A DNA stretch of 64,000 nt from an uncultured Rubritalea sp. (GCA_937132085.1 CAKZNV010000163.1:7441-71440); one strand, 5' to 3'; shown: positions 4,557-39,453, numbered from the stretch's first letter. Translations and numbers: made by a program. The notes: generated by a model not told the origin, from the letters alone.

Positions 4557-4577
4557 CTAGAAACCATTAATATGAAT

Positions 4578-4877: not shown

Positions 4878-4942
4878 CTACTCATTATACGAATCTAAAC
4901 AGAGATATCTCCAAATTTAGTAGTCACTCAGTTCGGTATAAT

Positions 4943-11277: not shown

Positions 11278-11294
11278 AGGGGCTCCCCTATGTT
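11278..11294 (+). repeat. oriT-like motif, copy 1
   Basis: AGGGGCTCCCCTATGTT; 16/17 identical to 13537-13553. Confidence 0.45.
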
Positions 11295-11365
11295 CTAAAC
11301 TATAGGTTATGCTCCGCTCCTTCTTTTTCAAAAGAATTAACAAACCTAAACAAAGAGGGGCTTGA

Positions 11366-12178: not shown

Positions 12179-13510
12179 CTAATAATTTCGGGCTCTACGC
12201 TTTGCTTCGCGGATGAGTAAGCCGTTCGGACGCCCTTGCAAAGCGGCGCAAATTGTCATTCCCAACCTAAATCTACGCAACACCTCCAGCCTCGCTAGCT
12301 TCTGCCTATGCCGCTTTTGAATCATTTTCGGTCTTTCTTGCATCTTCACTGGTGCTCTATCGTGCGGAGTAGAGCGTTGACCTGCATTGCCTTCCTCAGT
12401 ATCTCTTGCCTCCTGCTTATGCTTTTCACTCTCGTTATTCTCAACCACCAACTCCTCTTTAAGACCATGCTCTATGTCTGCACCAGTCTTGATCAAAGCC
12501 ATCTGCAACTCTTTCTTTTCACTGCGGGTTAATAAAGAATTCTGAAATCTCTTCACCTTCTCTCTGCTAGAACTCAACATTTTGTTAGAACGTGCATCTA
12601 CAACAAAGCTCTTCACCTCCTTCCAGCTAGGTTTTCTATGAAAGGCTTCTTCAAACTCCCTTCTAAATCGAATCTTCGCCTCCCTAGACCGCTCCTTAAT
12701 AAATTGTTCAACACGAGCCTTATTCGGCTCTTGACCAAACAACTCCTGATATCTCCTCACAAACCGCTCTCGCTGAATACTTCGCTGTGAAAACTTTCTC
12801 TCTATAGTGTGAGAAACCTCATTAAGCCGAAAGCCATGCTCTCCCCAACTCACAGTATAGCCAATCGCCTCTGCTCTCTTTGCCAAATTCTGATAAAAAT
12901 ATTCTCGGATAGAAATCTTACTTTCCTCCATCATAGGACGTGGCTGTAAGGCTAGCCATTTTTGCCGATCTTCACAATATGTCACATTCCCAAACACCAA
13001 ATGTGTATGCAATAATGGATCTAACATTCTGCTCGTGTCATGCTGATAAACAGCGCACACCGCATTACCTGTAATCCGATATGACTCAGTATTCACATTC
13101 GTCCCATGCCGAACTCGAACCGCCGCAAACTCTTCCAGCTTCTTAAACGTTTCAATACTAGCTTTATGATACGCCTCAACCAAGCGTTCATCCCCTCCCG
13201 TTAGAGCCATTATACTATAAGACTTAGGAGCGGAAACGACTACATCGTGATAAGCCACTATCCGACTTCTCGGTGTCAGCTTCTCCCCTGTAAATGGATG
13301 CTGATTATTTCGTATTGCCTGAAAATGCTCTTCCTGGACTTCCACACCTAACAAACCCAACTTCTCCGCACCTTGACCATGCCAATAGCCTACCACCTTC
13401 TCGCTCTCGGAGTAATAATCGTTCGCAGAAAGGTGAACTCGTAAATAGTCCTTCCCATCCCTAATCTGGCTAATCGTAATCATCGTTCTAATAGTGATAC
13501 GGAAAACCAA
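12179..13510 (-). CDS. MOBF (TrwC-type) relaxase without helicase domain; likely start at 13483
   Basis: NDYY, YWHGQGAEKLGL, SAPKSYS and HDTSR..DP.LHTH (3-His) motifs; no Walker A motif. Confidence 0.88.
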   Translation of the reverse strand: MVFRITIRTMITISQIRDGKDYLRVHLSANDYYSESEKVVGYWHGQGAEKLGLLGVEVQEEHFQAIRNNQHPFTGEKLTPRSRIVAYHDVVVSAPKSYSIMALTGGDERLVEAYHKASIETFKKLEEFAAVRVRHGTNVNTESYRITGNAVCAVYQHDTSRMLDPLLHTHLVFGNVTYCEDRQKWLALQPRPMMEESKISIREYFYQNLAKRAEAIGYTVSWGEHGFRLNEVSHTIERKFSQRSIQRERFVRRYQELFGQEPNKARVEQFIKERSREAKIRFRREFEEAFHRKPSWKEVKSFVVDARSNKMLSSSREKVKRFQNSLLTRSEKKELQMALIKTGADIEHGLKEELVVENNESEKHKQEARDTEEGNAGQRSTPHDRAPVKMQERPKMIQKRHRQKLARLEVLRRFRLGMTICAALQGRPNGLLIREAKRRARNY

Positions 13511-15068: not shown

Positions 15069-15506
15069 ATGCCCAACAATCAAATCCCATACGAGCCTGG
15101 ACACCCTTGGTATTACGTCCTTGGTGGCAAGGTTCTGAAACCCAGTCAAATCAAACAAAATGTAATCAAAAGCGGCTATCAAGGCTACTTGAAAGAAGAT
15201 ATTGAAAAAGCTGCAAACAAGGTAGAACCTCAACGCTCAATAGCATTACGCAGAATAAGAGAATCTGCTAAAAATGATCTTTTCTCCGATTTGAGCCGCT
15301 ACCGTGAAGTAGTCAGAGAACTAAGCCAGCACCGAGCTAGTAACTTAGACAAAGAACCACAACATCACGACATCCATACAAGCATAAGCCTCAAACATAA
15401 CCACATTTACAATAATTTGGCTCATCTTGTCACCATAGACGACTTACTCTCAGAGCAACCAGAACTTGATTTATTCTCTTCTCTAGGAGGCGCAAATGGC
15501 AGATGA
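15069..15506 (+). CDS. Hypothetical protein coupled to the methylase-like gene
   Basis: 145-aa ORF with GGAGG RBS; overlaps the next gene. Confidence 0.6.
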   Translation: MPNNQIPYEPGHPWYYVLGGKVLKPSQIKQNVIKSGYQGYLKEDIEKAANKVEPQRSIALRRIRESAKNDLFSDLSRYREVVRELSQHRASNLDKEPQHHDIHTSISLKHNHIYNNLAHLVTIDDLLSEQPELDLFSSLGGANGR

Positions 15507-16266
15507 AACCTACCGCACAATAATAGAGCAAATAGCTAGAACTAAATCGTCAACCATCACCGTGTTTGCAGATTTTTGCCGTATCGCCGCTTGTTGCTTT
15601 GCCGCAGGAACTAGAGAAGATGAATATTTTGAAGCCATCAAAAGCTATTCTAAAGACGAGCTAACACAGCTTTCCAAAGCTCTAGCCTTACTCATCTCAG
15701 AAATGGAGTCTAAGCCATTCACCGATGTTCTAGGCACTTACTATTTAGACATCGCTAGCCACTCCAGCAAACAAAGCCGAGGTGAATTCTATACACCACC
15801 AGAAATATCAAAGCTAATGGCAAAAATATCCGTAAATGCAGAATCGGTCATCGAAAAAGGCAAACCAATCACCGTCAACGAACCTGCCTGTGGAGCTGGT
15901 GGCATGATGCTAACCCTAGCAGAACAATTCGCCCCTCATTCAACAGGCAAAGAAAAAAGCTATGTAGACTTACTCCGCGTAACCTGCCAAGACATCAACC
16001 CCGTAGGCGTAGACATGTGCTACATAAACATGACCCTCTGGGGCATCCCAGCTACAATGATATGCGGTGACACCTTGCGAGGCACAATCAACAATTCATG
16101 GAAAAATATACATTGGCATCGCGTTGGCGAAGACCAACGCCAAGCAGTAGAAAACATGCTAGACTTCATCAAAAATCCACAAGCGGAGGAAAAAGAAAAA
16201 CCTGCTGACATTACAATGCCTAGTGCCTTTTTTCAAACTGGAGAACAGATGGAGTTAGGCTTTTGA
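15496..16266 (+). CDS. N6-methyltransferase-like protein (SAM-binding part; NPPx motif not seen)
   Basis: GEFYTP, EPACGAGGM, QDINP and GDTL motifs. Confidence 0.7.
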   Translation: MADETYRTIIEQIARTKSSTITVFADFCRIAACCFAAGTREDEYFEAIKSYSKDELTQLSKALALLISEMESKPFTDVLGTYYLDIASHSSKQSRGEFYTPPEISKLMAKISVNAESVIEKGKPITVNEPACGAGGMMLTLAEQFAPHSTGKEKSYVDLLRVTCQDINPVGVDMCYINMTLWGIPATMICGDTLRGTINNSWKNIHWHRVGEDQRQAVENMLDFIKNPQAEEKEKPADITMPSAFFQTGEQMELGF

Positions 16267-18580: not shown

Positions 18581-19228
18581 TTACCTCCTCCCTCGCTTAG
18601 CGTCTAAAACCTCTAAGCCTATACGTATTCGATTCACACACCATTCTACGTCTTCTATACTCCAGTTTAGAATCTCATTTAAATAACGCCCTATCCTATC
18701 TACATCCACTTTGCCTCTAGAATGACTAGATGCAGAACATATGAATTCATCCAATCTACGGACATCATAGAAATGATGACTCAAGGGGTGATGAGCCAAA
18801 TACATTTCAAATTTAGAGCGTGTCTTAGCCCCACTAATCGCTGACTTTAGAGTTAATTCAGCACTTGTCGACTTAACTAGCAGCCCCCATTTTTTCTCTT
18901 TAGCAAAAGCTTTAAGGCTCTTTTCAAAACTATTGAGAAAGCTATTATACTCCTCTACAGACAATTCTGATTTCGATTGTGGAACTATATTAGTCAACTG
19001 TAATGATGCTCCATCAGATGTAGCGAAATGTATAGAGGGGTATGGTTCAGCATAAACTGCATGGGCTACAATAGCATCAGAATCAATAGCTCTTCGATAC
19101 ATTAATGTTTGCTTCCTCAAATACTCATATTCATGAGATCTCTCGACAAACAAACTCACATACTCAACTAAATCTCTAGAGTCTTTTTCTGTAGCTCTAA
19201 TTGTCAATTCTTGAAACACCATCATCAT
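18581..19228 (-). CDS. Hypothetical protein coupled to the Mrr-like nuclease
   Basis: 215-aa ORF; ATGA overlap with the upstream gene. Confidence 0.6.
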   Translation of the reverse strand: MMMVFQELTIRATEKDSRDLVEYVSLFVERSHEYEYLRKQTLMYRRAIDSDAIVAHAVYAEPYPSIHFATSDGASLQLTNIVPQSKSELSVEEYNSFLNSFEKSLKAFAKEKKWGLLVKSTSAELTLKSAISGAKTRSKFEMYLAHHPLSHHFYDVRRLDEFICSASSHSRGKVDVDRIGRYLNEILNWSIEDVEWCVNRIRIGLEVLDAKRGRR

Positions 19229-20229
19229 TTTACTATAGAACGCTTTATTAAGCTTAGCAGTTCCCTATAATCTATTAATTGAAGTTCCCATGTATGCTTC
19301 TCTGCAAAAGCAACAGCATCTTTAGTGAACCCCGATGTCGTTGCTATTATTGCCTTAGATGCTCCTTCACTTATTTTCACACCATACAATTCCCTAACCT
19401 GAGAAACAGACACTTTCCTCTCTTTTTTATACCTTTTACATTCTATAATATGCTTAAGCATTATATTACCGGGGTTACCAATTGCTAAAATATCACGTCC
19501 TCCATCCCTCGTCCTCTGGGTTAAACAAACTTCATACCCCATCTTAGAAAAAACAGTTCCGACAAGTTCCTCAAAAAATCTAGGATCTACCGAATACAAT
19601 GATTGGGGGTTATCAACGAATCCTTCTGCTATTTTACTACTAACTTCGATAAAGATTTCATCATCTAGGTAATTTGAATCTTCAGGCGTCCAAATATTAG
19701 AATATTTCTCATGTATTAAAAACTCTATTGCTTCCCGAACTTCATCAAAAATGCTATCAGGATCTCGTCTCGAATACCTCTCTTCAACTCCTAAATCATA
19801 GATTTTTCCCTCCAAAATATCTAACTGTTCAAGAGCCTTATACCACTCTCCTCTAGTCGACAGCTCAATTGCTAAATCTCTATCTTGAGCCATTGATTCA
19901 AAATGCCCATCACAATATATTCTTTGATTCGCTTCAAATTCATACTCACCTGCATTTTTATCCACCAAATATGACTGGTGTTCTAACTCTGATATAACAT
20001 CTCCATTAGGCATCGTTATAAACCCTCGAGGATTCATGGGGATACCTGTTACTGTATCAGGTATTATCAATCGTCTATCTGGGATTCCTATAATAGCTCC
20101 CAACTTATTTAGTTGGGTTTCTATTTTTGATCGCTTCCGGTCACATATATGTAACAATTGCTTTTCACTTGGCATTGAATTGATTTTCTCAATCAGAAAC
20201 ATACTGTCAAGAATACTATTTATTCTCAA
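19225..20229 (-). CDS. Restriction endonuclease with C-terminal Mrr catalytic domain
   Basis: FEELV..VF..MGY.V..T..TRDGGRDI...IECKRY...V.V..VRELYG...ATTSGFT..A. Confidence 0.82.
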   Translation of the reverse strand: MRINSILDSMFLIEKINSMPSEKQLLHICDRKRSKIETQLNKLGAIIGIPDRRLIIPDTVTGIPMNPRGFITMPNGDVISELEHQSYLVDKNAGEYEFEANQRIYCDGHFESMAQDRDLAIELSTRGEWYKALEQLDILEGKIYDLGVEERYSRRDPDSIFDEVREAIEFLIHEKYSNIWTPEDSNYLDDEIFIEVSSKIAEGFVDNPQSLYSVDPRFFEELVGTVFSKMGYEVCLTQRTRDGGRDILAIGNPGNIMLKHIIECKRYKKERKVSVSQVRELYGVKISEGASKAIIATTSGFTKDAVAFAEKHTWELQLIDYRELLSLIKRSIVK

Positions 20230-22173: not shown

Positions 22174-22725
22174 ATGGGAAATCAAATATATGATAAGGTC
22201 GGACAACGTAAGTATCTTAACAAAGCAGAGAGCAAACTATTCTTAGATGAGGCTTCGAAACTAGAAGGTCATGAGAAGGCTCTTTGCCTCTTTCTCTATT
22301 ATACTGGTTGCCGTATCTCAGAAGCTCTAGAGATGACACCTCAGAGAGTCGAGTTCGAGAACGACTTGGCTGTTATACGATGCCTCAAGAAGCGTGCTAG
22401 CATTGAATATCGCGCTGTATTAATACCTCAAAGGCTAGTTTCTCAACTCTCTATTATGACAGCCACTCATGATACAAGGTTCTGGAATTTTTCGAGAACT
22501 ACAGCTTGGAGAATAGTTAAGAAGGTGATGTCTCAGGTTGGTGTAACAGGCTCCAAGGCTACAGCCCGATCACTGCGCCATACTTTTGCTGTTCGTGCTA
22601 TTCTCAATGGCGCTCCACTCAATAAGATTCAATCATGGCTGGGGCATTCTGACTTGTCAGTAACATCGATCTATTTAAATGTGACGGGTGAGGAAGACCG
22701 TCAGTTCATTAAAAAAACATGGTAA
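22174..22725 (+). CDS. Small catalytic-domain tyrosine recombinase, putative invertase
   Basis: YTGCRISEAL, SLRHTFA, LGHSD and IY motifs; 183 aa; flanked by inverted sites. Confidence 0.85.
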   Translation: MGNQIYDKVGQRKYLNKAESKLFLDEASKLEGHEKALCLFLYYTGCRISEALEMTPQRVEFENDLAVIRCLKKRASIEYRAVLIPQRLVSQLSIMTATHDTRFWNFSRTTAWRIVKKVMSQVGVTGSKATARSLRHTFAVRAILNGAPLNKIQSWLGHSDLSVTSIYLNVTGEEDRQFIKKTW

Positions 22726-23792: not shown

Positions 23793-24251
23793 TTATTTTG
23801 CGGACTTTTTTATATACCTAATCTCCCCCATTGGCGTAAACATGAATGCCTCTCGTTGGTCTAAATCTTGAATAAGAATAGGACAGTCATCTTCACAGGC
23901 AAGAAAAGCATCCCAGTTTTTAACAAAATTCCTCCACGTAGTTTTAAAAACAATCAATCGAGAGGCACAAAAATAAATATCCGCATCCTCTTTCCACTTA
24001 ACCGACTCTTTTAGCGCCAGCGAAACAGATGAATTCTCATCTAAGTTATATGCCTCAATCCAGCGTCCAACACATTGGCTATCTGCTTGAACAAACCAAT
24101 GGTTCTCAGTAAAAGAGTAAAAACTACTCTCTATTTCTCCAAACATGGTAGTAAAAATGACCAGTGATTCAGATTGAGAAAGTTGGTATATTTCCTCGTT
24201 TAAACGACCATCAAAATTATCTGCATATTCTGTTTTATTAACAAGTTCCAT
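23793..24251 (-). CDS. Putative immunity protein (DUF2947-like)
   Basis: Acidic 152-aa ORF 10 bp after the toxin-like gene; W...IYF...V.KTTW..FV.NWD.FL..EDD pattern. Confidence 0.5.
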   Translation of the reverse strand: MELVNKTEYADNFDGRLNEEIYQLSQSESLVIFTTMFGEIESSFYSFTENHWFVQADSQCVGRWIEAYNLDENSSVSLALKESVKWKEDADIYFCASRLIVFKTTWRNFVKNWDAFLACEDDCPILIQDLDQREAFMFTPMGEIRYIKKSAK

Positions 24252-24261
24252 TGGCTATATC

Positions 24262-25683
24262 TTAGTTTGCAGTGTTGTAGAAAATGTGTCCACCAGCTTT
24301 ACCATCTTTCCACTTCAAGTGTTGTAAATCATTACCAGCTTCAATTTCACGCGTATTTTTATCATTATGCACTTCATATCCCTTTTTGTAGACCTGCCCC
24401 CTATCTTTAGAATATTGCTTATAGCGATTCATGTTTCCTCTAGCCTCGACGAGAAGCTTCTTTGCATCCGTAGCATTCACGGTTCTAAAATTCAATTTGC
24501 CTTTACCTAGTCCAGAGAGACTTTTGACAGCAGCTTTCCACTCTTTTGTTTCTGGCTTAATCGTAGAGAGACCAGATGCTACACCTTCTCTCTTGATTCT
24601 TCCTTTCTTATTATAGCTCGCTAGCTTCTTTGATTCAACTTCTATCTTACGAGCTAACTTATTTGGTATTCCTAATGCATGGTTAACTTTAATCTTCCCC
24701 CTTTGATCCTTAGCTAGTTTTTTTATCAGTTTACGACTAGACGTGAGCTTAGAGTTAACTCCATTCAAAGCTTTAGCCCACTGTGTTCTCCGTTTGTGAG
24801 TTTTCTTACTGCCTCCAACTTGAGGTCTATTGGCGTGGTTAGGAGAATGCCCTACAGACTTTTTAATCTTCTTTCTATCTGCCCTTCTAGCAGTTTTAAG
24901 TTTCCTCCCCTTTTTACTTGTCTTGCCACTAATTGACCTTCTTTCTATTCGTGGTTTGTTTTTTACATTTGTTCTAAAAGTTCCTGATTTTCTAGCTGAT
25001 ATTCCAGACTTAGCACTATGATATTTCGCTACTGTGTTTCTGTAGCCTTTCCTTATACGAACTGAATTTCTGCCTATTTTGCCATACTTTACACCCCTTC
25101 TAACATTTGCTTGTTTAGACTGAAAAGAGCTTCTCACTCTTCCAGCGGATGCTCTTAACCTGCTTTTTGCTGTAGTAACCTTCCTCTTAACCGCAGAACG
25201 TGTATTTCTAGCAGTTGTTCTAACGTTATTAAAGCGTCTCCGTGCAGTAGAACGAGCAGTCCTATATTTATGCTTGGCTGATTGTCTAACATTCCGACCT
25301 TGCCTCCCAATGTTTGCACTTATTTTACGCACCCTTTTCCGAGCACCTTTAACACTACGCTTAGCCCTCCAATTAGCGATTCTTGCTTGTCGTCTAATTC
25401 GAGGTTGAGATCGTGGAACAACTTTACGAGCAGAGTTAGGTTTTACTTTCGGTTTAGGAGCAGGACGAGGCTTTGGCTTTGGGCGTGCTTTGGGTTGCGG
25501 TTTAGGGCGAGGCTTCGGACGTGGCTTAGGTTTAGGACGAGGTTTTGGGGCTGTTTTAGCGAAATAAAATGCAACAGTTCCCCCTCGCCCTTTAAACTGA
25601 ACAGCGTCTATAGGGACAACTAGAAGAAAGCTGAATAGAAAAAACAGATTTTTACGTAACAGTAGGTGGAAACTAAAATTCAT
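24262..25683 (-). CDS. Secreted Pro/Lys/Arg-rich protein with C-terminal toxin-like tip
   Basis: Signal peptide, (PK/PR)n tract and long R/K-rich region; C-terminal YEVH...NDLQHLKWKD..GGHIFY. Confidence 0.6.
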   Translation of the reverse strand: MNFSFHLLLRKNLFFLFSFLLVVPIDAVQFKGRGGTVAFYFAKTAPKPRPKPKPRPKPRPKPQPKARPKPKPRPAPKPKVKPNSARKVVPRSQPRIRRQARIANWRAKRSVKGARKRVRKISANIGRQGRNVRQSAKHKYRTARSTARRRFNNVRTTARNTRSAVKRKVTTAKSRLRASAGRVRSSFQSKQANVRRGVKYGKIGRNSVRIRKGYRNTVAKYHSAKSGISARKSGTFRTNVKNKPRIERRSISGKTSKKGRKLKTARRADRKKIKKSVGHSPNHANRPQVGGSKKTHKRRTQWAKALNGVNSKLTSSRKLIKKLAKDQRGKIKVNHALGIPNKLARKIEVESKKLASYNKKGRIKREGVASGLSTIKPETKEWKAAVKSLSGLGKGKLNFRTVNATDAKKLLVEARGNMNRYKQYSKDRGQVYKKGYEVHNDKNTREIEAGNDLQHLKWKDGKAGGHIFYNTAN

Positions 25684-26309
25684 TTTCTCTGCAATAGCTT
25701 ACGACTATCTAATATCACCCCTTCTTCAAACTTTTTATATTTATCACTCTCTATGACTTTTAGTAATTCTGCTAAGGCATTCATAGGGAATGGAACACCT
25801 GCATCCAAAATATCAGTTGCGGCTAGTTTTAAGGATTCTAGCCTTGTGTGTTCAGGAGCGTCTTTCTCCAGATACTCCGTGAGTAGAACCGAAAGTGTTT
25901 CCTCTAATTCTTCACAAACTTGGAACAGTTCAAAATAAATAGAATGATCGTATTTAGGCGGAGCACCCCTCTCTTTTGCATTATATTTATACCAGAAATA
26001 AATATCCTCATAATATGAAAGCTCTGAATTTTTATAGAGAGTGAGTAGCATTTCATACTTCCGCTCTAGGCTCTCGGCTTCTTGCATTAGCTCCTCTAGA
26101 TCCAGAGCGTCCATTTGTTGATTGTATTCCGCCTCAAACTGCTCTTCCATCTTAATGGCATCGAGAGTAGCATCTATTTCTGCTTCACTTAAACTAGATT
26201 CCTCCTGTATGCCCTTGGATTCAAACGAAGATTTTCTTTGCTGTTCCTTACAAGCATTCAGAAGACTCAGTGCTATTGATAGGCTTCCATAATATATTAT
26301 TTTTCTCAT
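25680..26309 (-). CDS. Acidic lipoprotein
   Basis: Lipobox-like LLNAC; E/D-rich helical body. Confidence 0.65.
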   Translation of the reverse strand: MRKIIYYGSLSIALSLLNACKEQQRKSSFESKGIQEESSLSEAEIDATLDAIKMEEQFEAEYNQQMDALDLEELMQEAESLERKYEMLLTLYKNSELSYYEDIYFWYKYNAKERGAPPKYDHSIYFELFQVCEELEETLSVLLTEYLEKDAPEHTRLESLKLAATDILDAGVPFPMNALAELLKVIESDKYKKFEEGVILDSRKLLQRK

Positions 26310-26320
26310 ACCTGTTTGTG

Positions 26321-27868
26321 TTACTCTGTTCCTCCTGGAAAGCTTTCAATATATTTTACGGCTCTTTGATACATCAATTTCACCAACAATTCATTATCCC
26401 CGTAATAATGAATACAAAGTTTCTTTGCATCCATTAAACCTTGCCTATCAATAATCCTCAATAACCTTTCCTTTATTTCATTAGGCTTGTTAATTAAAGA
26501 TGTCCTATCTCCCCCAGCCCCGAGGTGATCTCCTGCAATAAGTTGGAATAATTGGAAAAGGTTTTTCTTATTCTTATAACGTGAGAAACTTTCTTCAAAA
26601 TTTGCTACAGTCCTTGTAAATCTGCCCGCTCCTAATTTCATCTTGGCTTCACCTCTAGCAGCGGCTCCTCCCATGACAAATTTGGGAGGCCATTTCGCTA
26701 CTTCTTGCATCATGAAAAACAAAGACTCACCTTCAAACTCATTTACAAAAGCAGTCATGTATCTTAATCGGTCATAAGAATCACTTGATCCTATTTGAGG
26801 CTGAGGAACACTATCTTCTATTAAATCTTTAATGTGGTGATGACCTGCAAAATCATTTAAATCAATCTTTTGCTTTTGCACGGCTATACTAGCCTTTGCG
26901 TATCTCAACTCACTCGCACGTCTTAAATACTCTCTTCTTCTTTCCTCATTCTTTTCTAACTCTACTCGATTACCCAAATTCCATGCAGCTGTCGCAGAGC
27001 CTAGAGCTTCTGCATTTAGCATTAACTCTCTAGCATCTTTCCATTTTTCCATTCGAACAGCGATTCTTCCCATTCCAGCCATTAACCTCGGCTGATCACT
27101 TCTCTGTTCAGCAAAACCTTTATATGCCATATAAACCTCTTGTTGTTCACTAGGCTCAATCCACGCCATAGCCTCGTCAGTCACAGTAGGGGAAGATCTA
27201 GGCACTTCTTCGTCATTTGGGTCAGCTGACACTCTATCAATCTCTAGAATAATTTCTTTTTCTATCTTTCGAGCTAATTCTCCAGCTGGTGAAAAACTTC
27301 TTGAAGCTTCAAGGAGTAACTTTAACTTCCTCATTTTTAGCCGCGGAGTTTCTTGTGCTGTAATTAACTTCCCACTCTCATTCTCATATATCCCATCTAA
27401 TAGATTTGTTTTTGCCTGGTAATATTTTGCGGAAGAAGAGCCAGATTTCACGGCTAATTGCCAATAGTGATCTGCTGTCTCCAAGTCTCCTAGGTAGTAG
27501 GCGATTCGGCCCATTGCAAAAGTGTATTCAGCTTTATCAGAATTGTTTTCTACAAATTTGAACGCCTTTTCACTTTCGAGTATAGAACGAGCTTCTGCTC
27601 TGTTTACTTCGCCAGATTCCCAAGCTAAATCTAGATTTCCTCTCCCTTTGGAGAATGGATCTTTCGGATGAGCTCCAGTTCGTATAACTAATTTTAAAAA
27701 TATGTCCTCTCTATCTTTATGAGACATCTCTTTATCTAATACAGTCGTCAGAGCAAATTCTTCCTCTGCATTTTCCCGATATGAAGAGGACGTGTTGCGT
27801 TTTGATAACGCTATCAATCCCCCTATAAGCACGGATGCTGCAAAAATGGTTATTCCTATATTCTTCAT
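26321..27868 (-). CDS. Membrane-anchored TPR/Sel1-like repeat protein
   Basis: N-terminal hydrophobic helix; two similar repeats MGRIA.......A......A...GS..A. Confidence 0.6.
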   Translation of the reverse strand: MKNIGITIFAASVLIGGLIALSKRNTSSSYRENAEEEFALTTVLDKEMSHKDREDIFLKLVIRTGAHPKDPFSKGRGNLDLAWESGEVNRAEARSILESEKAFKFVENNSDKAEYTFAMGRIAYYLGDLETADHYWQLAVKSGSSSAKYYQAKTNLLDGIYENESGKLITAQETPRLKMRKLKLLLEASRSFSPAGELARKIEKEIILEIDRVSADPNDEEVPRSSPTVTDEAMAWIEPSEQQEVYMAYKGFAEQRSDQPRLMAGMGRIAVRMEKWKDARELMLNAEALGSATAAWNLGNRVELEKNEERRREYLRRASELRYAKASIAVQKQKIDLNDFAGHHHIKDLIEDSVPQPQIGSSDSYDRLRYMTAFVNEFEGESLFFMMQEVAKWPPKFVMGGAAARGEAKMKLGAGRFTRTVANFEESFSRYKNKKNLFQLFQLIAGDHLGAGGDRTSLINKPNEIKERLLRIIDRQGLMDAKKLCIHYYGDNELLVKLMYQRAVKYIESFPGGTE

Positions 27869-27872
27869 TTCC

Positions 27873-28415
27873 TTAGTTTTTTTTGTGTTTACGAGATGAC
27901 TCAGCTTTGAACTTACGATATTTCTCGATTCTTTTCTTCAATGAGCTAATAAGAAATTCTTCTTGTCTAACTTGATACTCAAGATTTTGAAGCTCTCTCT
28001 CATGCTCTCCTAATAGATCATCCTTATGACGATCTAGCTCAGCCGATTTAATTTTGAGCAACCTCATTCTTAAAGACGACCGTCTGACTTCTTTTTCAAG
28101 GTCATAAATTTTAGCCCTTTGCTCATTAAGTAGAATCTGCTGCTTTTCATTTTTTGCCACAATTTGAGATAAATTATCGTTTTCGTTTTTCAATATGCCG
28201 CGAAGTGTAGCAAGAGAACGTTCACTCGTTTCTAATCTCTTCTTAGATAAGGACAGCTCTCCTTTCTTCTTTTGCACAAACTGTTCCATGTTTTTACTGC
28301 AAAACATAACTTGTATCGACGTTGCTGAGCGTGGATCAATAGCCCCACTAGGGCAACAACTATCTAACATTATTGCTGATACTATTAACACAGAACAATT
28401 AAGTGACTTTTTCAT
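27873..28415 (-). CDS. Coiled-coil lipoprotein
   Basis: LDSCC lipobox-like sequence, DPR motif, long heptad region. Confidence 0.6.
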   Translation of the reverse strand: MKKSLNCSVLIVSAIMLDSCCPSGAIDPRSATSIQVMFCSKNMEQFVQKKKGELSLSKKRLETSERSLATLRGILKNENDNLSQIVAKNEKQQILLNEQRAKIYDLEKEVRRSSLRMRLLKIKSAELDRHKDDLLGEHERELQNLEYQVRQEEFLISSLKKRIEKYRKFKAESSRKHKKN

Positions 28416-28433
28416 TCTCTTTTTTGCTTTATC

Positions 28434-29297
28434 TTAAAAAGGAACAGCATCGCGTATTCCCTTTAAATTGACTCCGAATGGATTCCATTTACCACTTGCT
28501 CCGATACTATTATCATAAGATTTTGAACCAGATCTTTTGATTAAATTGTCCAGCATTCTCTCAGCTCTAGATTTTATTCCTAGCATCTCATTAAAGCGCG
28601 TTCTGTGCTTCGACTTCTTATAAGATAACTGTCTTACCAGCACTTTTAATTTCCCTCGTTCAATACCTTGAACTCTATTAGCATCTGCTATTACATTCTC
28701 GGTGTAGAGGATTGACCTTTTAACATAAACAATTTCACTATCTAGAGCTTTGATAAACTCCGATAGCCTAGCAATGACTAAACTATTCTTTTCCGCTGAA
28801 TATTGACCTTTGCTATTCTTAACATTTGCACGAGATATTTGACTTCGGATGCTATTTAGCTCGGAGTTAAAAAAATTCTTCAACTTCGTATTATTGCTAA
28901 GAGCTAGTTTAGAATATGATATTTCTTTGTCTAAAAACTCAGCTCGGCTTGAATATTTCATTCGCTTTGCTGCAACGCTAGTAGCAACGCTATCGCTAGC
29001 TTTAGAGAGAACTGCTACCGCAAGACCTGCATAGACTACTTTCTTAAGTTGCCTAGGATCTTTAAGTTTTATCTGAATGTTTTTTGCCAGATATCGAACC
29101 CTAGAGCTACTAGCAGAAATATTAGGCTTCTTACGATAGGCTTGGGTTTTGAGAGGTGAAGTCGTAGGACTCGAGATCTTTGGCAAGCCACTGACTATTT
29201 TCATAGGATCAATAGACGAGCAGTTACTCAATCCAATACAGCTCCCAATAGCCACTGCCATGGCTCCAACATTTCTTAATATTAATTTTATTTTCAT
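28434..29297 (-). CDS. Coiled-coil lipoprotein with internal hydrophobic segment
   Basis: LSNCSS lipobox-like sequence; VVYAGLAVAVL segment followed by a coiled coil. Confidence 0.6.
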   Translation of the reverse strand: MKIKLILRNVGAMAVAIGSCIGLSNCSSIDPMKIVSGLPKISSPTTSPLKTQAYRKKPNISASSSRVRYLAKNIQIKLKDPRQLKKVVYAGLAVAVLSKASDSVATSVAAKRMKYSSRAEFLDKEISYSKLALSNNTKLKNFFNSELNSIRSQISRANVKNSKGQYSAEKNSLVIARLSEFIKALDSEIVYVKRSILYTENVIADANRVQGIERGKLKVLVRQLSYKKSKHRTRFNEMLGIKSRAERMLDNLIKRSGSKSYDNSIGASGKWNPFGVNLKGIRDAVPF

Positions 29298-29941
29298 TAC
29301 TTTGTTGTTTTATTCTTAAATAGAAATACTTGAGGATGTGGATAGTGTCGTTTCCATATTTTTTTTGATTGCTTCAAAGCTGATACATCAGACTTCAATA
29401 ATAATTCATTTTTTAAGATGAAATACCTTTGCTCTGATCGTAAATTAGATAGCTTTTTTTCCTTTGCTATTGTGTTATTTAAACTTAAAATGACCAATTC
29501 AGGTTCTTCTCGATATACATCAATTAGTCTCGCTATCCCTTCTATTAGCAACTTCCGATCTTCTTCTTTAGTAGCAACTCGATCTACTAAAGCCGCTTTA
29601 AGAGCAGTTTCGCTTTCAAAATCAGCGCTCTTCACTGAATCTTTTTGTAGAATTTTTAATTGAGCTATCTCCTCGTCCCCTTTTAAGCAACTAATCCAAT
29701 CTCTGTCTATTTGAACTAGCGAAGTCTCAATATTCGGCTTTACCTTGTCCACAGCTCTTTTATCAAACATTTTAACACACAACAAACCGACGCCTAAACC
29801 TGTAGCGATTAAAACGATGAGTGCTACAAACCTAAACGAAGCGATCTTACGAACAAAACCCTTCCATTCTAAAGGCTCTATATTTTTATCCTTAGAAGAA
29901 TCCTCCTCAGGTATATTGATTTCTATTTTTTCTTTTTTCAT
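29297..29941 (-). CDS. Single-pass membrane protein with helical extracytoplasmic domain
   Basis: FVALIVLIATGLGVGLLC transmembrane segment; coupled to both neighbours. Confidence 0.65.
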   Translation of the reverse strand: MKKEKIEINIPEEDSSKDKNIEPLEWKGFVRKIASFRFVALIVLIATGLGVGLLCVKMFDKRAVDKVKPNIETSLVQIDRDWISCLKGDEEIAQLKILQKDSVKSADFESETALKAALVDRVATKEEDRKLLIEGIARLIDVYREEPELVILSLNNTIAKEKKLSNLRSEQRYFILKNELLLKSDVSALKQSKKIWKRHYPHPQVFLFKNKTTK

Positions 29942-30885
29942 TTCAAAACTGCTAATAATAATGCACTTAACACTCCAGACGAGTCATTCGTGAACACCCC
30001 CCTATCTCCAGCGGCTACTGCTAGATGTTCAAAAAATTGTTTAGATGCTCGATCTCTTCTGCTACTTCCATTTCCAGTAAAACAAGCTACCATGGTAAAA
30101 TTGGCATTTTGCTTAGATAAGCTCATTACTTTCGATACAATATTGTTTTCGATTTGCGACTGACGGGTAGAACCAATGGTCACATTTTTAACCTCATAAG
30201 GACCGACATCACCAAATACAACCACTGCCTGTCTCCCTTCGTTTCCCAGAGATGCTTTAGACACTTCCAATGCTTTCAGTAAAGCTTGCTCTATATCTGC
30301 ATTACCTCCTCCCGCTTTAAGACCTTTTGTAAACTCTATAAGTTGCTGGGCTGAATGATGAAGCTTCTCTGGATCATATTCAATTTTTTGATTCAGTAAG
30401 GAATATATAGTTCCTTTAGCGTAAGCAATAATTGAGATAGTAACTCTGGGCGAAATTGCTGGTAAAGATTTTGATAACGCCTCGATGCTCGTTTTAAGTT
30501 GCTCTATCTGACTTGACATTGATCCAGATATGTCAATGACAACCACGAGATCTAACGGTTGACTTGAAATGTCACCTGATTTTTTAGAGTCTTCATTTGT
30601 TATTTTTTGATTCTCTGCATCTACCGCAAAACCTCTATTTTCAACCTCTAGCGAAACCTTATCTTGTTCAGATTTACTAAGTTGGGCTTCTAACTCTTTA
30701 ATCTCTTCCTTCTGTTCTTTTATAATTTCGCGAGCTACAGGATCACCCTCCGTTTTAAAATCACCCTCTTTAACCACCGATAAAGCAATCATCAGTAATA
30801 GAACAAAAATTGCCATCGTAGCAAATATCAAATCACTAAAAGACTCATAGAATGAAGGTTGAGTATCTGCTCCGCTAAGTTTCAT
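29938..30885 (-). CDS. MotB/ExbD-like TM helix + coiled coil + vWA domain protein (start reassigned to 30885)
   Basis: SFSDLIFATMAIFVLLL carries the conserved TM Asp; MIDAS-like DISGSMS and FGD. Confidence 0.75.
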   Translation of the reverse strand: MKLSGADTQPSFYESFSDLIFATMAIFVLLLMIALSVVKEGDFKTEGDPVAREIIKEQKEEIKELEAQLSKSEQDKVSLEVENRGFAVDAENQKITNEDSKKSGDISSQPLDLVVVIDISGSMSSQIEQLKTSIEALSKSLPAISPRVTISIIAYAKGTIYSLLNQKIEYDPEKLHHSAQQLIEFTKGLKAGGGNADIEQALLKALEVSKASLGNEGRQAVVVFGDVGPYEVKNVTIGSTRQSQIENNIVSKVMSLSKQNANFTMVACFTGNGSSRRDRASKQFFEHLAVAAGDRGVFTNDSSGVLSALLLAVLK

Positions 30886-31699
30886 TACTTCCTTCCTTGC
30901 TACTGTTTTCCGCATTTTTTCTTAATGCAGGAAGAATGTAAATTTCTGTCATTTCCAGCACATACGCCACGTATTTAGTTATTTGAGAATCCATAACACT
31001 AGCCAGAATACGTAAAATAATTCCTCCACATAAAGAACCTAAAAGAGTTGTATAAAAAGCAAGGCCTAGCCCAGCAAGAGGTCCTTCTGCACCTAGCAAG
31101 CTTTGAAGTAATCCACCTGAATCCTGCTTAATGTTCTGTATTGCCAAAGTAAGATCCTCCATCATGATGATAAGACCTACAATCGTTCCTACCAAGCCAA
31201 GCGTGACTAGGATACTAGCGAATATGTTAACGTCTCTAATTCGGAAACGTAACATTGTGTGCATATTCTCAAGCAGGTTATCTTGCTCTACTTTATGATG
31301 CACTTGAGATATTTTTTCTAAAGAACGTATGTGACCAACAAACAAACCAGAGTGAGATAGGTTATCCACCACTTCATTCAAACCTTTGTTCTCTCTAATA
31401 GAATTAATAATGTTCCGAGCTTCCACAAACTCTTGATCCAAATGAACAGCACCTATAATCAACTTACAAATCATTATAACCGATATAGATAGAATCAATA
31501 CGTAGAATATTATGCCTGATTGATTGTCGAGATACGCTTGGTAAGAAACCCATCCAACACCACCTAACAGTAGCAACCAAAAAACCGTGCTAACTAGAGC
31601 TCCTGACGTTTTATTATTTGAAGTATTACAGTTTAGACTCACAATTGATTGAATAAATTTTTCGTTTACAATATACGCTATGCTTGACAGATCTGCCAA
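30875..31699 (-). CDS. MotA/TolQ/ExbB proton-channel family protein
   Basis: TLGLVGTIVGL and GLGLAFYTTLLG channel helices plus two N-terminal TM segments. Confidence 0.8.
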   Translation of the reverse strand: MADLSSIAYIVNEKFIQSIVSLNCNTSNNKTSGALVSTVFWLLLLGGVGWVSYQAYLDNQSGIIFYVLILSISVIMICKLIIGAVHLDQEFVEARNIINSIRENKGLNEVVDNLSHSGLFVGHIRSLEKISQVHHKVEQDNLLENMHTMLRFRIRDVNIFASILVTLGLVGTIVGLIIMMEDLTLAIQNIKQDSGGLLQSLLGAEGPLAGLGLAFYTTLLGSLCGGIILRILASVMDSQITKYVAYVLEMTEIYILPALRKNAENSSKEGSNET

Positions 31700-31880
31700 G
31701 TTCCAAAGTGATAAATATTCATCAACTCATCAACTAACTTAGGATAAATAAATAACACATCTAAGAGGGATAATCAGGAACTCGATAAATCTTTTGATTT
31801 CAGAGTTCAACGTTTGTCATTCATTGGATATCTTACGTTCCTTTTGCGTATCACCAATAAGGCACACTGCCTTATTGATT

Positions 31881-35185: not shown

Positions 35186-35521
35186 TCACTCCATCACCGA
35201 AATCTGATCAATCCTAGCATCTTTCTCAGGCAGAAATATACCTGACGGCAGTTCTCGGAGATAGATCACTCTATGGTCTGTAATTGCCTTATGAATCACA
35301 TCTAGGTTTGCACCAACGACAATCACCTTGCTTTGCGTGAACTCGATGCGTAAGGCATGAGACAAGCCTTTGACTCCGTAGAGATGATTATATCCAGCAG
35401 AGTAGCGTGATTTATCACGCTTGATGAAGGTGAGCATGTTTGAACGGTCCCTGAACTTCACAAACTCATAGCACTCAGTCTTTGACCGACCGTCAAAGCC
35501 ATTAAAAACCTCCTCACTCAT
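35186..35521 (-). CDS. Small relaxase-linked protein (paralog of 11840-12166)
   Basis: ATGA overlap with the relaxase 2 stop; G.NLD motif. Confidence 0.6.
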   Translation of the reverse strand: MSEEVFNGFDGRSKTECYEFVKFRDRSNMLTFIKRDKSRYSAGYNHLYGVKGLSHALRIEFTQSKVIVVGANLDVIHKAITDHRVIYLRELPSGIFLPEKDARIDQISVME

Positions 35522-38217
35522 GCTACCCCTCTTTGCAATGACGTTGCTGGCTGAGGTTGCGAACGCACACTTACTTCTGTTACCCGATTCGCAAGCTCTT
35601 GCTGAGTTTCGTCTAACCTCTTCTGCTCTAACAATTCTTGAGCTAACATTCCTTGTCTACTCCTACTCACCCCCTCAATAAAATCTGCCTTATTCTCTAC
35701 CCAAATCGAAATTTCCTCTCTAGCCCTAGATGCACTGACATAGAACTGTTCCATACTTTCTGCTCCTTGACTCTGTGCCCCCTGACAGATGATTACTTTC
35801 TGCGTTGTCTTACCTTGACTTGCATGACTAGTAGAAACATACCCATATGCAATGGCTGTTGTTCCCTTCGCTATTTTACTGCCATTTTGAAGCTCTATTT
35901 CACCCGTATCTGTAATTGACTTCACCTGATGCACCGAACCGTTATAAATCCTCTTCCCTTCGATACTTTTGACGTTTTTGGTAAAGCGAATCTTATCATT
36001 CACAACTAGTTTCAACGGTATTTGCTCAAACACTTCAAAATGCGTTGAAAAGCTTAAATCTAATCTTTTCAGTGCCTCTGAATGCTCCGAACTGAGTATA
36101 ATCTGCCCGTCTTGCACAGCTTCTATTTTATACGATTCCCCTCTCTTAGAAACTCCGGCCACCCCTTTATGAAAACAAATCACATTGCCCACTTCCAGAA
36201 AATGCGCCATCTGCTTTTGTGCATCGGTCAGATTTTTATTGCGATAACTTATCACTTCTTTCTCTTCTGAACTTAAATAACCTATCGATTTGAGCTTCTC
36301 TCTAATGGCAGAAGTAACAAGCCGCCCTTCTGCGTGAGAAGGTGACACGACCAAAGTATTTTTGCCAACTCCATCAACATAATCTTGAGCGACAAGCTTC
36401 AATTTTTCAGCTAAATCATCATATTCTTTGATAGCTCCCATTTCATCAAATATCTCAACTGCGTCTATCACATTTCCAACACTCAAACACTCAACAGCCT
36501 CCTTATATTGAGCTAGTTTCTGTCGATAGATAGTGCGTGTCTCTTTCACTTCAACCAAGCCACTATCTGTCACCAAGCGCAAACTCCCCCTACCCACACT
36601 TTTATGTTGAAAAACATCACCACTAAGCACTATACGATTTCCATATTTTTCACTTATTTCAAACAGCTTACTAAGCTCTTTTGCCGAGAGCATGCCTGCT
36701 TCATCAACCCACAACACGGCATGACTCGCTTCTTCCTGTAAAGCTGTATTGAGTAAAAATTGCTGAATCGTCTCGCTGTTTTCGAAACCTTCTTGCTTTA
36801 GCACCTGATGGCTCGCCTGTGATGTCGGAGCAAATGTATACACGCGCTCGCCAAATTTCATCATCGAATCTATTGCCGCTTTCATCATCGTAGTCTTTCC
36901 TGTTCCAGCCTTTCCAGCCACTACAAACACACGATCTTTAGAACGCATCAAAGCCTCAACGACCGACTTCTGTTCATCATCTAAGTTAGAATCTTGAAGG
37001 CTAAACTCAGAATGTATCTGATATTGCGTTCCTTTAGTCCGAGCTAAGAATTTTAGTATTTTATTCTCTTCTTCCAACACTAATTTAGTAGTCACATATT
37101 CAGTATTATTCTTGCTACTAATAATCAATTCATCACGTCCTGCTATTTCATCCTCTACCTCTTCTACCGTGCAACTACCAAGTGAATTTTGCAAAACCTC
37201 TGCGATAAGCCTACGATACTGCATCACACTATCTCGCTCGAACATAGAATCGATGGTCTGATCTACCACTTGCTTTAAATCAACATGAATGCTTTCATTT
37301 GCGTCCCAATCATAATCATCGCCCACTCTGTTAGCACGCTCCAGCCACTGATTCCGCATCTCACTCTTGCTTGTATTCGTGATTTTAGGATTACGAGTGC
37401 GTGAAGCTAAGCCATCCATCGCTTTTTTATCCCCAGCAATGCCTAATTCCTCTGCCAGATGCTCTATTTCCTCAGATCGTTTTGAAAACTCATCAATCAA
37501 AGCCTGTGATACTCCCCTCACCTCAAAGCCAAACTTCTTATTGATAATTTCATAGCCAAGCTCTTTCAATCCCATCGCCAATCGACTATGAAAAGCCGCT
37601 TGAAAATACGGAGCTTCTTTTACAACATGATACAGATCTACTGCTTGAAACCTAGCATCATGTAACGTTGTATTAAAAGTATAGGCATGACAATGAAGCG
37701 CAGGATCGCATTCCATCCGTTTTGAATTCTCATTAAACACAGGTCTGGAAACCAAATGAGTAAACTCAGCCCACACCAAATTACCTGTCTTGGCTTCCGT
37801 AGCAACACCACCCTTACGCACACGCACATAAGCACTTTCCTCCACACTCAACATCGTATCTCTAACAGCTTTCTGAAACACAGACAGCACTCTCTCATCA
37901 GAAAAAACGCTATAGAGAATTGAGACTGACTTAGGAGCAGCCCAGGTCAGATCGCATCCACAGCGCCGATCAAGATCTTCTCTAGGGTTCAACTTTCCAA
38001 GCGTATCAGGTCTACGATTATCACACAAAAGCGAGAAATCATCCTTCTCAACATCGCCACTGAGCCCCAAAACACCAGCCGCTTTCCCCGCCCAAACCCC
38101 ACAACCAACCTCCTGCCCATAATAATCCCCCTGAGCCAGCCCAGAATTATAATACGACTTCGCCGCCCCTACTGTTTTACTGTGATGAATTCTCAGCATC
38201 CAACATGTATATACCAC
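35518..38217 (-). CDS. MOBF relaxase-helicase (TrwC/TraI-like); likely start at 38199
   Basis: SYY...DYY, AAPKSVS, H..SRP...DPALHCH, Walker A GKAGTGKTT, VDEAGM and GYVSTSHASQGKT. Confidence 0.92.
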   Translation of the reverse strand: MVYTCWMLRIHHSKTVGAAKSYYNSGLAQGDYYGQEVGCGVWAGKAAGVLGLSGDVEKDDFSLLCDNRRPDTLGKLNPREDLDRRCGCDLTWAAPKSVSILYSVFSDERVLSVFQKAVRDTMLSVEESAYVRVRKGGVATEAKTGNLVWAEFTHLVSRPVFNENSKRMECDPALHCHAYTFNTTLHDARFQAVDLYHVVKEAPYFQAAFHSRLAMGLKELGYEIINKKFGFEVRGVSQALIDEFSKRSEEIEHLAEELGIAGDKKAMDGLASRTRNPKITNTSKSEMRNQWLERANRVGDDYDWDANESIHVDLKQVVDQTIDSMFERDSVMQYRRLIAEVLQNSLGSCTVEEVEDEIAGRDELIISSKNNTEYVTTKLVLEEENKILKFLARTKGTQYQIHSEFSLQDSNLDDEQKSVVEALMRSKDRVFVVAGKAGTGKTTMMKAAIDSMMKFGERVYTFAPTSQASHQVLKQEGFENSETIQQFLLNTALQEEASHAVLWVDEAGMLSAKELSKLFEISEKYGNRIVLSGDVFQHKSVGRGSLRLVTDSGLVEVKETRTIYRQKLAQYKEAVECLSVGNVIDAVEIFDEMGAIKEYDDLAEKLKLVAQDYVDGVGKNTLVVSPSHAEGRLVTSAIREKLKSIGYLSSEEKEVISYRNKNLTDAQKQMAHFLEVGNVICFHKGVAGVSKRGESYKIEAVQDGQIILSSEHSEALKRLDLSFSTHFEVFEQIPLKLVVNDKIRFTKNVKSIEGKRIYNGSVHQVKSITDTGEIELQNGSKIAKGTTAIAYGYVSTSHASQGKTTQKVIICQGAQSQGAESMEQFYVSASRAREEISIWVENKADFIEGVSRSRQGMLAQELLEQKRLDETQQELANRVTEVSVRSQPQPATSLQRGVA

Positions 38218-38340: not shown

Positions 38341-39453
38341 ATGCCAGTAAAGTTCAAACTAGACCAAGTAATTTTAGGATGTGCTCCTATATCATATCGA
38401 CGAGGTGATAGCCCCAAGCTGATTTATAGAGAACTGTTGTCGCCTGAAGATCCTGAGTTAATCGATAGATTAGAGCAACTTCATGGTTGCATTTTTTCTA
38501 AAATTACAGGTTTACCAGAACCTTCACACGTTAAAGATCTCGTTATCATAATTAATAAAGAGCTTGATGGCTTAGCATACATTGATGAATTAAAGGTTAA
38601 CGGAGTCGTAGATTATAATAAAAAAGAAGCCGTAATTGGTGATCCAATTAGAATTTCAGATATAAAAAAAATTATTTCTATCGATTTAGGTATTAACATT
38701 TCACCTGAAGATGCTGTAATTATTGTCCGAAGTTTTTCATGGAAAAGATCTTTATTTTTCGATTTTGGACCTTTGCATAATAGCACAGGACCTAGAACCT
38801 ATGATATCCAAAAAGCTTTAGCACAACAATTAAGTCTATTACTAGGAATCCCTTCATCATCGGAGCCTACAACTCAAGGCAGAACTAGAGTTCAAGAAAT
38901 GAAACGCTCTTTGGACAAATTTGATGCTCTATTAGCCAGAAACTGTAAAGAAGAAAGCTACTATCAAAAATTATTAAATGAAGCCCCTTGGATGTTCGGA
39001 TCGTCCTATAGTAAACTTAAGAGGCACAAAAAATTAGATGATGAGAATATTCCTGATTTAACACTAGTTCGCTCATACGATGAGTGTCATGATATTGTAG
39101 AACTAAAACAGCCTTTCTTGAAAATATTCAAGAAAGACAATACATTCGCATCTGCTTTTCACAACGCTTGGGATCAAGCGGAGAGATACTTGAATTTTTG
39201 TGATAATCAGCGGAGCTACTTAAAGGAAGAGAAGGATTTAGATTTTCAAAATCCCACCTGCATTCTATTAATAGGTAACTCATATGATAACGAACAAGCC
39301 AAACTAATAAAGAGTAAGGAAGCATTCAACTCAAGAATTCGTGTAATGTCATACCAGCAATTAAAGCAACAAGCAGAACATATTTTAGAAACCTCAATGA
39401 GGACACAAGACCGAAATTACAGCCCAAAATCTACCATCTCACCTAGTGAATAA
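38341..39453 (+). CDS. Shedu (SduA, DUF4263)-like nuclease
   Basis: C-terminal E..YQ..L...PW.FG, PDL...DIVELK.P and AWDQAERY motifs. Confidence 0.72.
   Translation: MPVKFKLDQVILGCAPISYRRGDSPKLIYRELLSPEDPELIDRLEQLHGCIFSKITGLPEPSHVKDLVIIINKELDGLAYIDELKVNGVVDYNKKEAVIGDPIRISDIKKIISIDLGINISPEDAVIIVRSFSWKRSLFFDFGPLHNSTGPRTYDIQKALAQQLSLLLGIPSSSEPTTQGRTRVQEMKRSLDKFDALLARNCKEESYYQKLLNEAPWMFGSSYSKLKRHKKLDDENIPDLTLVRSYDECHDIVELKQPFLKIFKKDNTFASAFHNAWDQAERYLNFCDNQRSYLKEEKDLDFQNPTCILLIGNSYDNEQAKLIKSKEAFNSRIRVMSYQQLKQQAEHILETSMRTQDRNYSPKSTISPSE

Follow-up and report, generated by a model that had tools for sequence, protein, structure and literature searches.

Nine consecutive minus-strand genes, g1 to g9 (positions 23793–31699), in a stretch of 64,000 nucleotides from an uncultured Rubritalea sp. 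(GCA_937132085.1 CAKZNV010000163.1:7441-71440; the whole analysed stretch is referred to as the window) suggest a toxin-delivery route in bacteria that has so far not been described. The operon combines a MotA/ExbB-type channel and a partner ending in a domain of the von Willebrand factor A (vWA) type with lipoproteins, a repeat protein and a terminal toxin-immunity pair. Judged from sequence, it could quite possibly, if still tentatively, be a rare Tol/Ton-like trans-envelope apparatus driven by ion-motive force, of which the version with one vWA gene and a g6-type gene handles a Sec-exported polymorphic toxin.

The motor pair and its conserved core

Open reading frame (ORF) calling over the window confirmed the row of nine tightly packed genes, with spacings of -11 to +18 bp (overlaps of 1–11 bp or gaps of 4–18 bp) when the g2 start is placed at ATG 30885, as in all full-length homologs. 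No minus-strand terminator-like site was found inside the row by a promoter and terminator scan that did not rise above shuffled sequence and carries little weight. The first gene, g1 (30875–31699, minus strand; 274 amino acids (aa), with an uncertain TTG start), encodes a MotA/ExbB/TolQ-type channel subunit. PF01618 MotA_ExbB was matched at E 1.7e-6 (28.3 bits against a gathering cut-off of 22.9), the family alignment has T166, T172, T217 and T218 invariant in the last two transmembrane (TM) helices, and the motifs LGLxGT and FxTT are likewise invariant, so that both the domain and the Thr/Gly motifs place g1 in the MotA/ExbB/TolQ superfamily of A subunits. Matches to ZorA were weak and the long cytoplasmic tail of the ZorA type is lacking, and a g1-family profile matched no solved MotA, ExbB, TolQ or ZorA structure among the PDB sequences.

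The second gene, g2 (29938–30885, minus strand; 315 aa, in an ORF open up to 30915), is the analogue of the B subunit, with a single N-terminal TM helix, an invariant Asp in it and a position right after the A gene, which it overlaps by 11 bp. Its N-terminus matched ZorB1 (E 1e-6) and, marginally, MotB_plug (0.011), and the helix contains a FYESFSD motif that is invariant in the family (F22, E24, F26, S27 and D28), with VWA PF00092 matched at E 1.7e-10. An AlphaFold2 model built on 35 family members (mean predicted local distance difference test score, pLDDT, 82) has the TM helix at residues 22–49, a helix of 54 residues at 59–112 and the vWA domain at 121–325, and Foldseek matched it to the vWA domains of CMG2, Rpn10, ITIH1, integrin beta and LapA at E ~1e-8; the BatB vWA domain was a weak PDB match. 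DISGS is the complete DxSxS start of a metal ion-dependent adhesion site (MIDAS), and neither D128 and M133 nor the GDxGPxE strand varies across the family. With the Thr ring of g1 and the Asp helix of g2, the two proteins show the features typical of a motor of the MotA5:MotB2 type, and in the model the periplasmic end of g2 is a MIDAS-bearing vWA domain on a helix of ~8 nm. The initial annotation had described just such a channel and partner, with a vWA domain in the place of the peptidoglycan (PG)-binding or ExbD domain and an A subunit without the long ZorA tail, and the domain calls, the FYESFSD motif, the model with its Foldseek matches and the 274-aa length of g1 bear this out.

The g2 family is rare: when 1.84 billion cluster representatives were searched with a profile, only 127 matched at E<=1e-30. 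In the loci fetched, a g1-type gene (E 1e-32 to 1e-47 against g1) directly precedes every family vWA gene, and no motB, tolR or exbD gene was found. One locus, a Nitrosomonas nitrosa contig (L052), has in addition, at 10284–11768, a second MotA-like gene followed by a 236-aa protein with a SFYESFSDLIF helix and a coiled coil, the C-terminal domain of which is beta-rich and not vWA, suggesting that the transpore-helix module has been fused to other heads too.

About 50 loci were collected (17 genomic, 29 metagenomic and several by exact look-up) and their ORFs called and clustered. The order MotA, vWA (one or two genes), c3, c2, c4 is kept across them, and these five families always occur together. 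Both this core and the full-length relatives of g2, at ~30% identity, are found in Gammaproteobacteria, Betaproteobacteria, Desulfobacterota and Planctomycetota. Family c3 consists of single-pass proteins of ~215–240 aa; c2 comprises lipoproteins in which a glycine-zipper segment is combined with a long coiled coil (PF13441/PF13488, Gly-zipper_YMGG/Omp, in L051–L053, and PG_binding_1 on the homologs in L001 and L013); and c4, a coiled-coil lipoprotein of ~180 aa, is present in every complete locus. Two subtypes could be distinguished. In at least 14 loci there are two vWA genes, a Sel1-like protein of ~450–600 aa (c5) lies upstream, and the row ends after c4 with no toxin. The other subtype, to which the window belongs, has one vWA gene, and most of its loci continue with c6, the g6 family; in L017, L020 and L037 the lipoproteins are kept with one vWA gene, and neither c6 nor a toxin gene occurs in the available sequence. 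In L031 (10878–11750) and L053 (10906–11865) the N-terminus of the c3-position protein, on the cytoplasmic side, contains a CxxC...CxxC zinc-ribbon, which hints at a possible cytoplasmic input. In the Lamellibrachia (tubeworm) symbiont (L001, 1–8951) a Chp/Pil-type chemosensory cluster (PilJ, ChpA-like, CheW) immediately precedes the operon and another cheW follows it, a placement that may be coincidence.

In the window's operon, two lipoproteins could be assigned to families that, by these matches, always accompany the MotA/vWA motor. On the minus strand as throughout the row, g4 (28434–29297) combines a long coiled coil with a glycine-zipper-like segment of small residues and matched the c2 hidden Markov model (HMM) at E 7.9e-9 over residues 85–247, and g5 (27873–28415), a coiled-coil lipoprotein of ~180 aa, matched the c4 HMM over its full length at E 3.7e-10. 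The next gene, g6 (26321–27868), encodes a membrane-anchored Sel1/TPR-like protein of family c6 (E 2.1e-32; 96.5% by hhalign). Its repeat module is duplicated, residues 20–154 and 197–325 both matching HMM positions ~43–196, which accounts for its extra length over relatives of ~350–410 aa. TPR_2 itself was matched weakly (0.003), and a search for g6 homologs in a database of 5.8 billion proteins returned only the window's own protein. Composition does not explain these family matches, because none of the operon's remaining coiled-coil proteins cross-matches the c2, c4 or c6 models. The larger family HMMs settled g4, g5 and g6 but neither g3 nor g7. The product of g3 (29297–29941; 214 aa) is a single-pass inner-membrane protein with one predicted TM segment (residues ~36–58, by eye) and a helical periplasmic part; it shares position, size and topology with the c3 proteins of 25 loci, and the c3 HMM gave only E 0.19. 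An acidic lipoprotein (pI 4.6) specific to this operon is encoded by g7 (25680–26309), for which no match was obtained in any related locus or HMM library; its equivalence to the last conserved gene of the other loci was considered and rejected, that gene corresponding to g8. Lipobox-like N-termini were recognized by eye in g4, g5 and g7. The earlier description of a single-pass protein, two lipoproteins, a TPR protein and an acidic lipoprotein holds, g6 being a clear member of a Sel1/TPR-like family.

Terminal toxins and immunity genes

In all ten loci with readable sequence behind the g6-family gene (the window, L001, L004, L008, L016, L019, L031, L051, L052 and L053) this gene is followed by one for a K/R-rich protein of toxin type with a Sec signal. 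Each product starts with a signal peptide that has a cleavage site of AXA type, continues with a disordered linker and closes with a C-terminal domain of ~100–130 residues. Across the ten loci the linker contains 17–36% K+R and 1–7% D+E, often with a Pro-Lys run first. Five C-terminal types occur besides this common build. L004 and L051 end in a barnase-type RNase (PF00545, 1.7e-12) and have Barstar (PF01337, 3.4e-24) as the next gene, and L031 ends in Ntox46 (PF15538, 2.5e-22), followed by a lipoprotein gene. L001 and L052 share an unnamed domain at 43% identity and have small downstream ORFs that look alike by eye, and the C-terminal domain of L008 resembles this type by eye only, with no BLAST match. 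Another unnamed domain is found in L016 and L053, and a fifth type in L019, where a small ORF of 85 aa follows. Pfam gave no name for the toxin domains of L001, L008, L016 and L019, and BLAST against the Ntox46 domain of L031 did not bear out a suspected likeness of the L001 and L008 domains to TNT or Ntox46. The toxins of L001 and L004 are homologous in their N-terminal parts (E 4e-6) and unrelated in their C-terminal domains, which is the signature of cassette swapping. In L004, L051 and L052 the g6, toxin and immunity genes form a separate convergent unit that still adjoins the motor. The immunity candidates were, from sequence, without signal peptides. L004 is the cultured Marinobacter maritimus CK47, and since it carries the barnase/Barstar version the question is open to experiment.

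The window's own predicted toxin precursor, g8 (24262–25683, minus strand), has the build of the last gene in the nine other loci: a Sec signal (residues 1–27, 25603–25683), a Pro-Lys repeat (25438–25551), a linker with 34% K+R and a C-terminal domain (residues ~367–473, 24265–24585), the whole protein having a pI of 12 and 29% K+R. Over its last ~105 residues it shares 50–70% identity with the C-termini of proteins carrying RHS (PF03527/PF25023) or PT-HINT (PF07591) domains, and K134, Y136, E137, H139, N140, N143, R145, E146, N151, H155, D160 and K162 are invariant when numbered in a 173-residue g8 query. An AlphaFold2 model of the toxin domain (pLDDT 76) gave no significant Foldseek match, the best being teneurin at E 0.06, and PDB sequence searches with the g8 C-terminus and with g9 returned only noise. 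One segment immediately preceding the toxin domain (24470–24590, g8 residues ~365–405) had weak PDB matches to the alpha2-alpha3 region of histone H2B (E 0.2–0.8), which is probably an effect of composition, although the local identity is noticeable.

The last gene of the row, g9 (23793–24251, minus strand), encodes a DUF2947 protein (PF11163, E 1e-18; pI 4.5) that is the predicted cognate immunity protein; it lacks a signal peptide, as would suit a target in the cytoplasm. A DUF2947 gene stands directly after the g8-type domain in five of five unrelated loci checked (L049, L050, L054, L055 and L056), two of which lie within classical arrays of toxin cassettes and have Imm-NTF2-2 and AHH genes as neighbours. 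Because of this pairing and of the C-termini shared with RHS and PT-HINT proteins, the C-terminal domain of g8 and g9 are, as a prediction from homology and gene order, a toxin/immunity cassette grafted onto a polybasic scaffold and also used by RHS and PT-HINT toxins. Three features of polymorphic toxins are thus present: the C-terminal domain of g8 recurs on unrelated scaffolds (RHS, PT-HINT), a downstream immunity gene varies with it (DUF2947 in five of five, Barstar after barnase, and by eye the ORFs of L001 and L052), and a constant N-terminus is joined to different C-terminal domains among loci (L001 and L004). The terminal pair that the initial annotation had called toxin-immunity-like is thereby upheld, with toxicity predicted. 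Likewise, the neighbourhood survey it had proposed did find that related loci have a core in common and that variable toxin genes, in several cases with an immunity-type gene beside them, close most of the one-vWA loci.

Proposed function and alternatives

Several steps may be sketched at least preliminarily. The toxin precursor g8 would enter the periplasm via Sec and be held there by the Sel1/TPR-like g6; its very long basic linker would, in this element, probably be bound by the acidic lipoprotein g7 as well. The motor, with g3 as its inner-membrane partner, would generate force that reaches g4 and g5, the outer-membrane lipoproteins, by a vWA-MIDAS contact. This transmission would let the toxin be freed or exposed at the outer membrane, killing neighbours without g9, while g9 would protect the cytoplasm of the producer. 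Carried on an integrative conjugative element (ICE), the module might serve both as a weapon in competition and as a stabiliser of addiction type. That the motor pulls or turns outer-membrane lipoproteins by way of the vWA domain, and that in the c6 subtype this work releases or exposes the toxin, has a good though not a winning chance of being right. A shade more doubtful, but still a serious possibility, is that the one-vWA, g6-containing form is an unrecognised ion-motive-force pathway that carries polymorphic toxins, once exported by Sec, onto the outer membrane or across it; the same reading of secretion or delivery, held just as guardedly, comprises a MotA5:(TM-Asp-vWA)2 motor, the glycine-zipper/coiled-coil lipoproteins and the polybasic linker as export signal. 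Export, display or delivery of the toxin by the motor is what we infer from these genes. It would be a property of the g6-containing subtype and not of the whole motor family. The initial interpretation, an ICE-borne envelope machine that exports, displays or delivers a polymorphic toxin, is therefore supported in part: the motor, the ICE and the toxin/immunity ending stand, whereas the novelty of the pair and toxin handling throughout the family do not.

Several points weigh against a toxin-handling apparatus. The motor and lipoproteins occur without a toxin gene in the two-vWA loci and in L017, L020 and L037, so that the core would have to have a toxin-independent activity; the initial annotation had counted occurrence of the pair without the lipoproteins or without toxin-like genes as damaging, and of these the lipoproteins are in fact always kept but the toxin is not. 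No obvious immunity gene adjoins the toxins of L016 and L053. The g8 domain has no enzymatic activity assigned to it, since its model gave no significant fold match, and the homology of g3 to c3 is not demonstrated, the two being equivalent by position, while g7 appears to have no counterpart elsewhere. Neither a pore in the outer membrane nor a component resembling secretins was identified, and the functional reading is drawn wholly from gene neighbourhood. Nevertheless, co-location of toxin and motor is strict in three phyla, for which reason their association appears more than coincidence.

The principal alternative could be that the core is a Tol-Pal-like system for envelope maintenance or force transduction, with a task of its own that needs no toxin, and that the g6-toxin-immunity module is a separate neighbouring cassette that at most docks there, its toxin being released by lysis, vesicles or leakage. 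This would account for the toxin-free loci just named and for the convergent transcription unit formed by the module in L004, L051 and L052, and it is in keeping with the generic force-transducing role proposed in the available text of PMC12204202, but it would not account for the observation that the module was found only beside the MotA/vWA motor in the loci examined, with the adjacency kept in three phyla and after rearrangement of the operon. The peculiar polybasic N-terminal part common to the toxins points to dedicated handling, and we regard a separate cassette as possible but doubtful.

Colicins enter cells through TolQRA/ExbBD-TonB, and the apparatus could similarly be an entry route, in which the disordered basic N-terminus of the toxin parasitises the motor in recipients and only system-bearing cells without matching immunity are hit, a form of kin-discrimination or 'greenbeard'. 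The long disordered N-termini with TonB-like Pro-Lys repeats, as in colicin translocation domains, the strict linkage of toxin and motor and the established precedent of colicin import would all agree with this; however, a system with so few representatives offers few targets and the toxins have no recognisable receptor-binding domain, making an entry route improbable. Alternatively, the operon could be a Zorya-like anti-phage system in which the motor detects damage done to the envelope in the course of infection and activates the toxin, which acts as the effector of abortive infection, consistent with the weak ZorA and ZorB HMM matches and with the Shedu, NACHT and Mrr defence genes on the same element. 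Those matches, however, cover only the generic MotA and MotB parts, there is no ZorA tail and no ZorC/D-type effector, and the cleavable signal peptides would take the toxins out of the cytoplasm, where an RNase would need to act. Because the toxins are exported and their domains are of the interbacterial RHS/PT-HINT type, paired with immunity genes, a Zorya-like defence role is unlikely, and is the least probable of the explanations weighed here.

Flagella, Ton, Tol, gliding/T9SS and Zorya are the jobs known for 5:2 ion-driven motors. If the link between motor and toxin is functional, toxin delivery would be a new output for such motors, and the operon would provide both a first testable function for the predicted motors termed TPH-vWA (discussed below) and a new trafficking class of polymorphic toxins. 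The pairing of g8 and g9 would give a first, predicted, immunity assignment for DUF2947 and a new toxin domain of RHS and PT-HINT proteins.

Mobile context and relation to known systems

Two copies of a 50-bp perfect direct repeat were found, one (attL, 1427–1476, plus strand) being the 3' half of tRNA-Val and the other (attR, 56345–56394, plus strand) lying at the far end, and together they bound ~55 kb that contain the operon. Between them are integrases, a TrwC relaxase-helicase, a type IV coupling protein (T4CP) and VirB4-, VirB6- and VirB10-type genes, from which the operon is, by gene content, cargo of an ICE of ~55 kb, as the initial annotation had proposed. Divergent transcription from the T4CP operon was also confirmed: across an intergenic region of 94 bp (31700–31793), in which only consensus-level promoter matches were found, g1 faces a ParA-like gene, a 150-aa ORF and the T4CP on the plus side. 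The element is probably composite, to judge by its genes. There are three integrase genes (1608–2885, 9511–10887 and a 183-aa fragment at 22174–22725) and two TrwC relaxase genes (a full one at 35518–38217 and a relaxase-only one at 12179–13510), and a tRNA-like GGTTCGAATCC remnant is located at 9394–9404 on the minus strand. Cargo of defence type includes a T5orf172 protein with a DEAD helicase, an N6_Mtase piece, an Mrr_cat nuclease, a Shedu SduA_C protein and a NACHT NTPase (2916–8221, 15496–16266, 19225–20229, 38341–39453 and 52791–56210), the NACHT NTPase having 1139 aa and being encoded in a stretch of low GC (0.34–0.36). A ClpB-like AAA_2 ATPase of 271 aa (42025–42840) ends the row of type IV secretion genes (VirB10/TraE/VirB6-type) and is an unusual companion for a conjugation system.

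With regard to known systems, the motor pair corresponds to proteins described in the available text of PMC12204202 (2025), in which 'TPH-vWA' proteins were predicted by AlphaFold 3 to lie inside TolQ-like pentamers, often as heterologous pairs, with function unknown. There, as here, a TM-tethered vWA domain with a MotB/TolR/ExbD-like Asp helix is encoded directly after a tolQ/motA-like gene without tolR, exbD or motB, and the two-vWA loci match the 'heterologous pairs'; g2 has the vWA domain on an Asp transpore helix and the linkage to a tolQ-like gene without tolR or exbD, so that by description it belongs to that family. The available text covers the pair only and does not describe the c3, c2 and c4 genes, and the window differs in having a single vWA gene and a g6-toxin-immunity module, on an ICE. 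The earlier statement that the operon is not a named system thus stands for the whole operon with its toxin, for which no description was found, but not for the motor pair. The word 'toxin' has 0 occurrences in PMC12204202, the terms MotA, TolQ, ExbB and vWA have 0 occurrences in ~300,000 of the 357,715 characters of the polymorphic-toxin survey of Zhang et al. 2012 (PMC3482391), and full-text literature searches combining a MotA/vWA motor with polymorphic toxins returned nothing linking them. As far as searchable literature shows, the link between the two is new.

The toxins themselves resemble the polymorphic toxins (RHS, PT-HINT, CdiA and colicin-type) treated in the available part of PMC3482391 in having a constant trafficking N-terminus, a swappable C-terminus and an adjacent immunity gene, and they share with them barnase/Barstar, Ntox46 and the cassette of the g8 C-terminal domain with DUF2947. 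They differ in that the trafficking part is a Sec signal with a polybasic disordered linker, and in their linkage to a MotA/vWA motor with lipoproteins.

Among envelope systems, Tol-Pal (TolQ-TolR-TolA-TolB-Pal-CpoB) is similar in combining a 5:2-type inner-membrane motor, a single-pass inner-membrane protein whose periplasmic part is helical, outer-membrane lipoproteins and a TPR/coiled-coil protein, and some lipoprotein homologs here have a PG-binding domain. Only MotA_ExbB is detectably homologous, however, and the periplasmic head here is vWA-MIDAS; membership was rejected, no TolR periplasmic domain, TolA domain III, TolB beta-propeller or Pal OmpA-like domain being found in g2–g7 with Pfam and NCBIfam. 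Zorya (ZorAB with ZorC/D, E or F/G) likewise has a non-flagellar MotAB-like motor, found on mobile and defence islands, and its ZorA and ZorB cores were matched weakly, the NCBIfam scores for g1 and g2 being far below the cut-offs; it too was rejected, as g1 has 274 aa, g2 ends in a vWA domain and no Zorya effectors were found with PADLOC and NCBIfam. The Bat aerotolerance operon (BatA-E) has membrane-anchored vWA proteins encoded with TPR proteins, but Bat proteins are without the MotB-type Asp helix, a MotA partner and a toxin, and with no Bat counterpart to the MotA domain of g1 or the Asp helix of g2 this candidate was also set aside. The type IX secretion system (T9SS) is related by no homology past the general motor principle, and neither T9SS components nor its C-terminal-domain signals occur here, but in GldLM/PorLM it offers a precedent of a 5:2 ion-driven motor powering protein export at the outer membrane.

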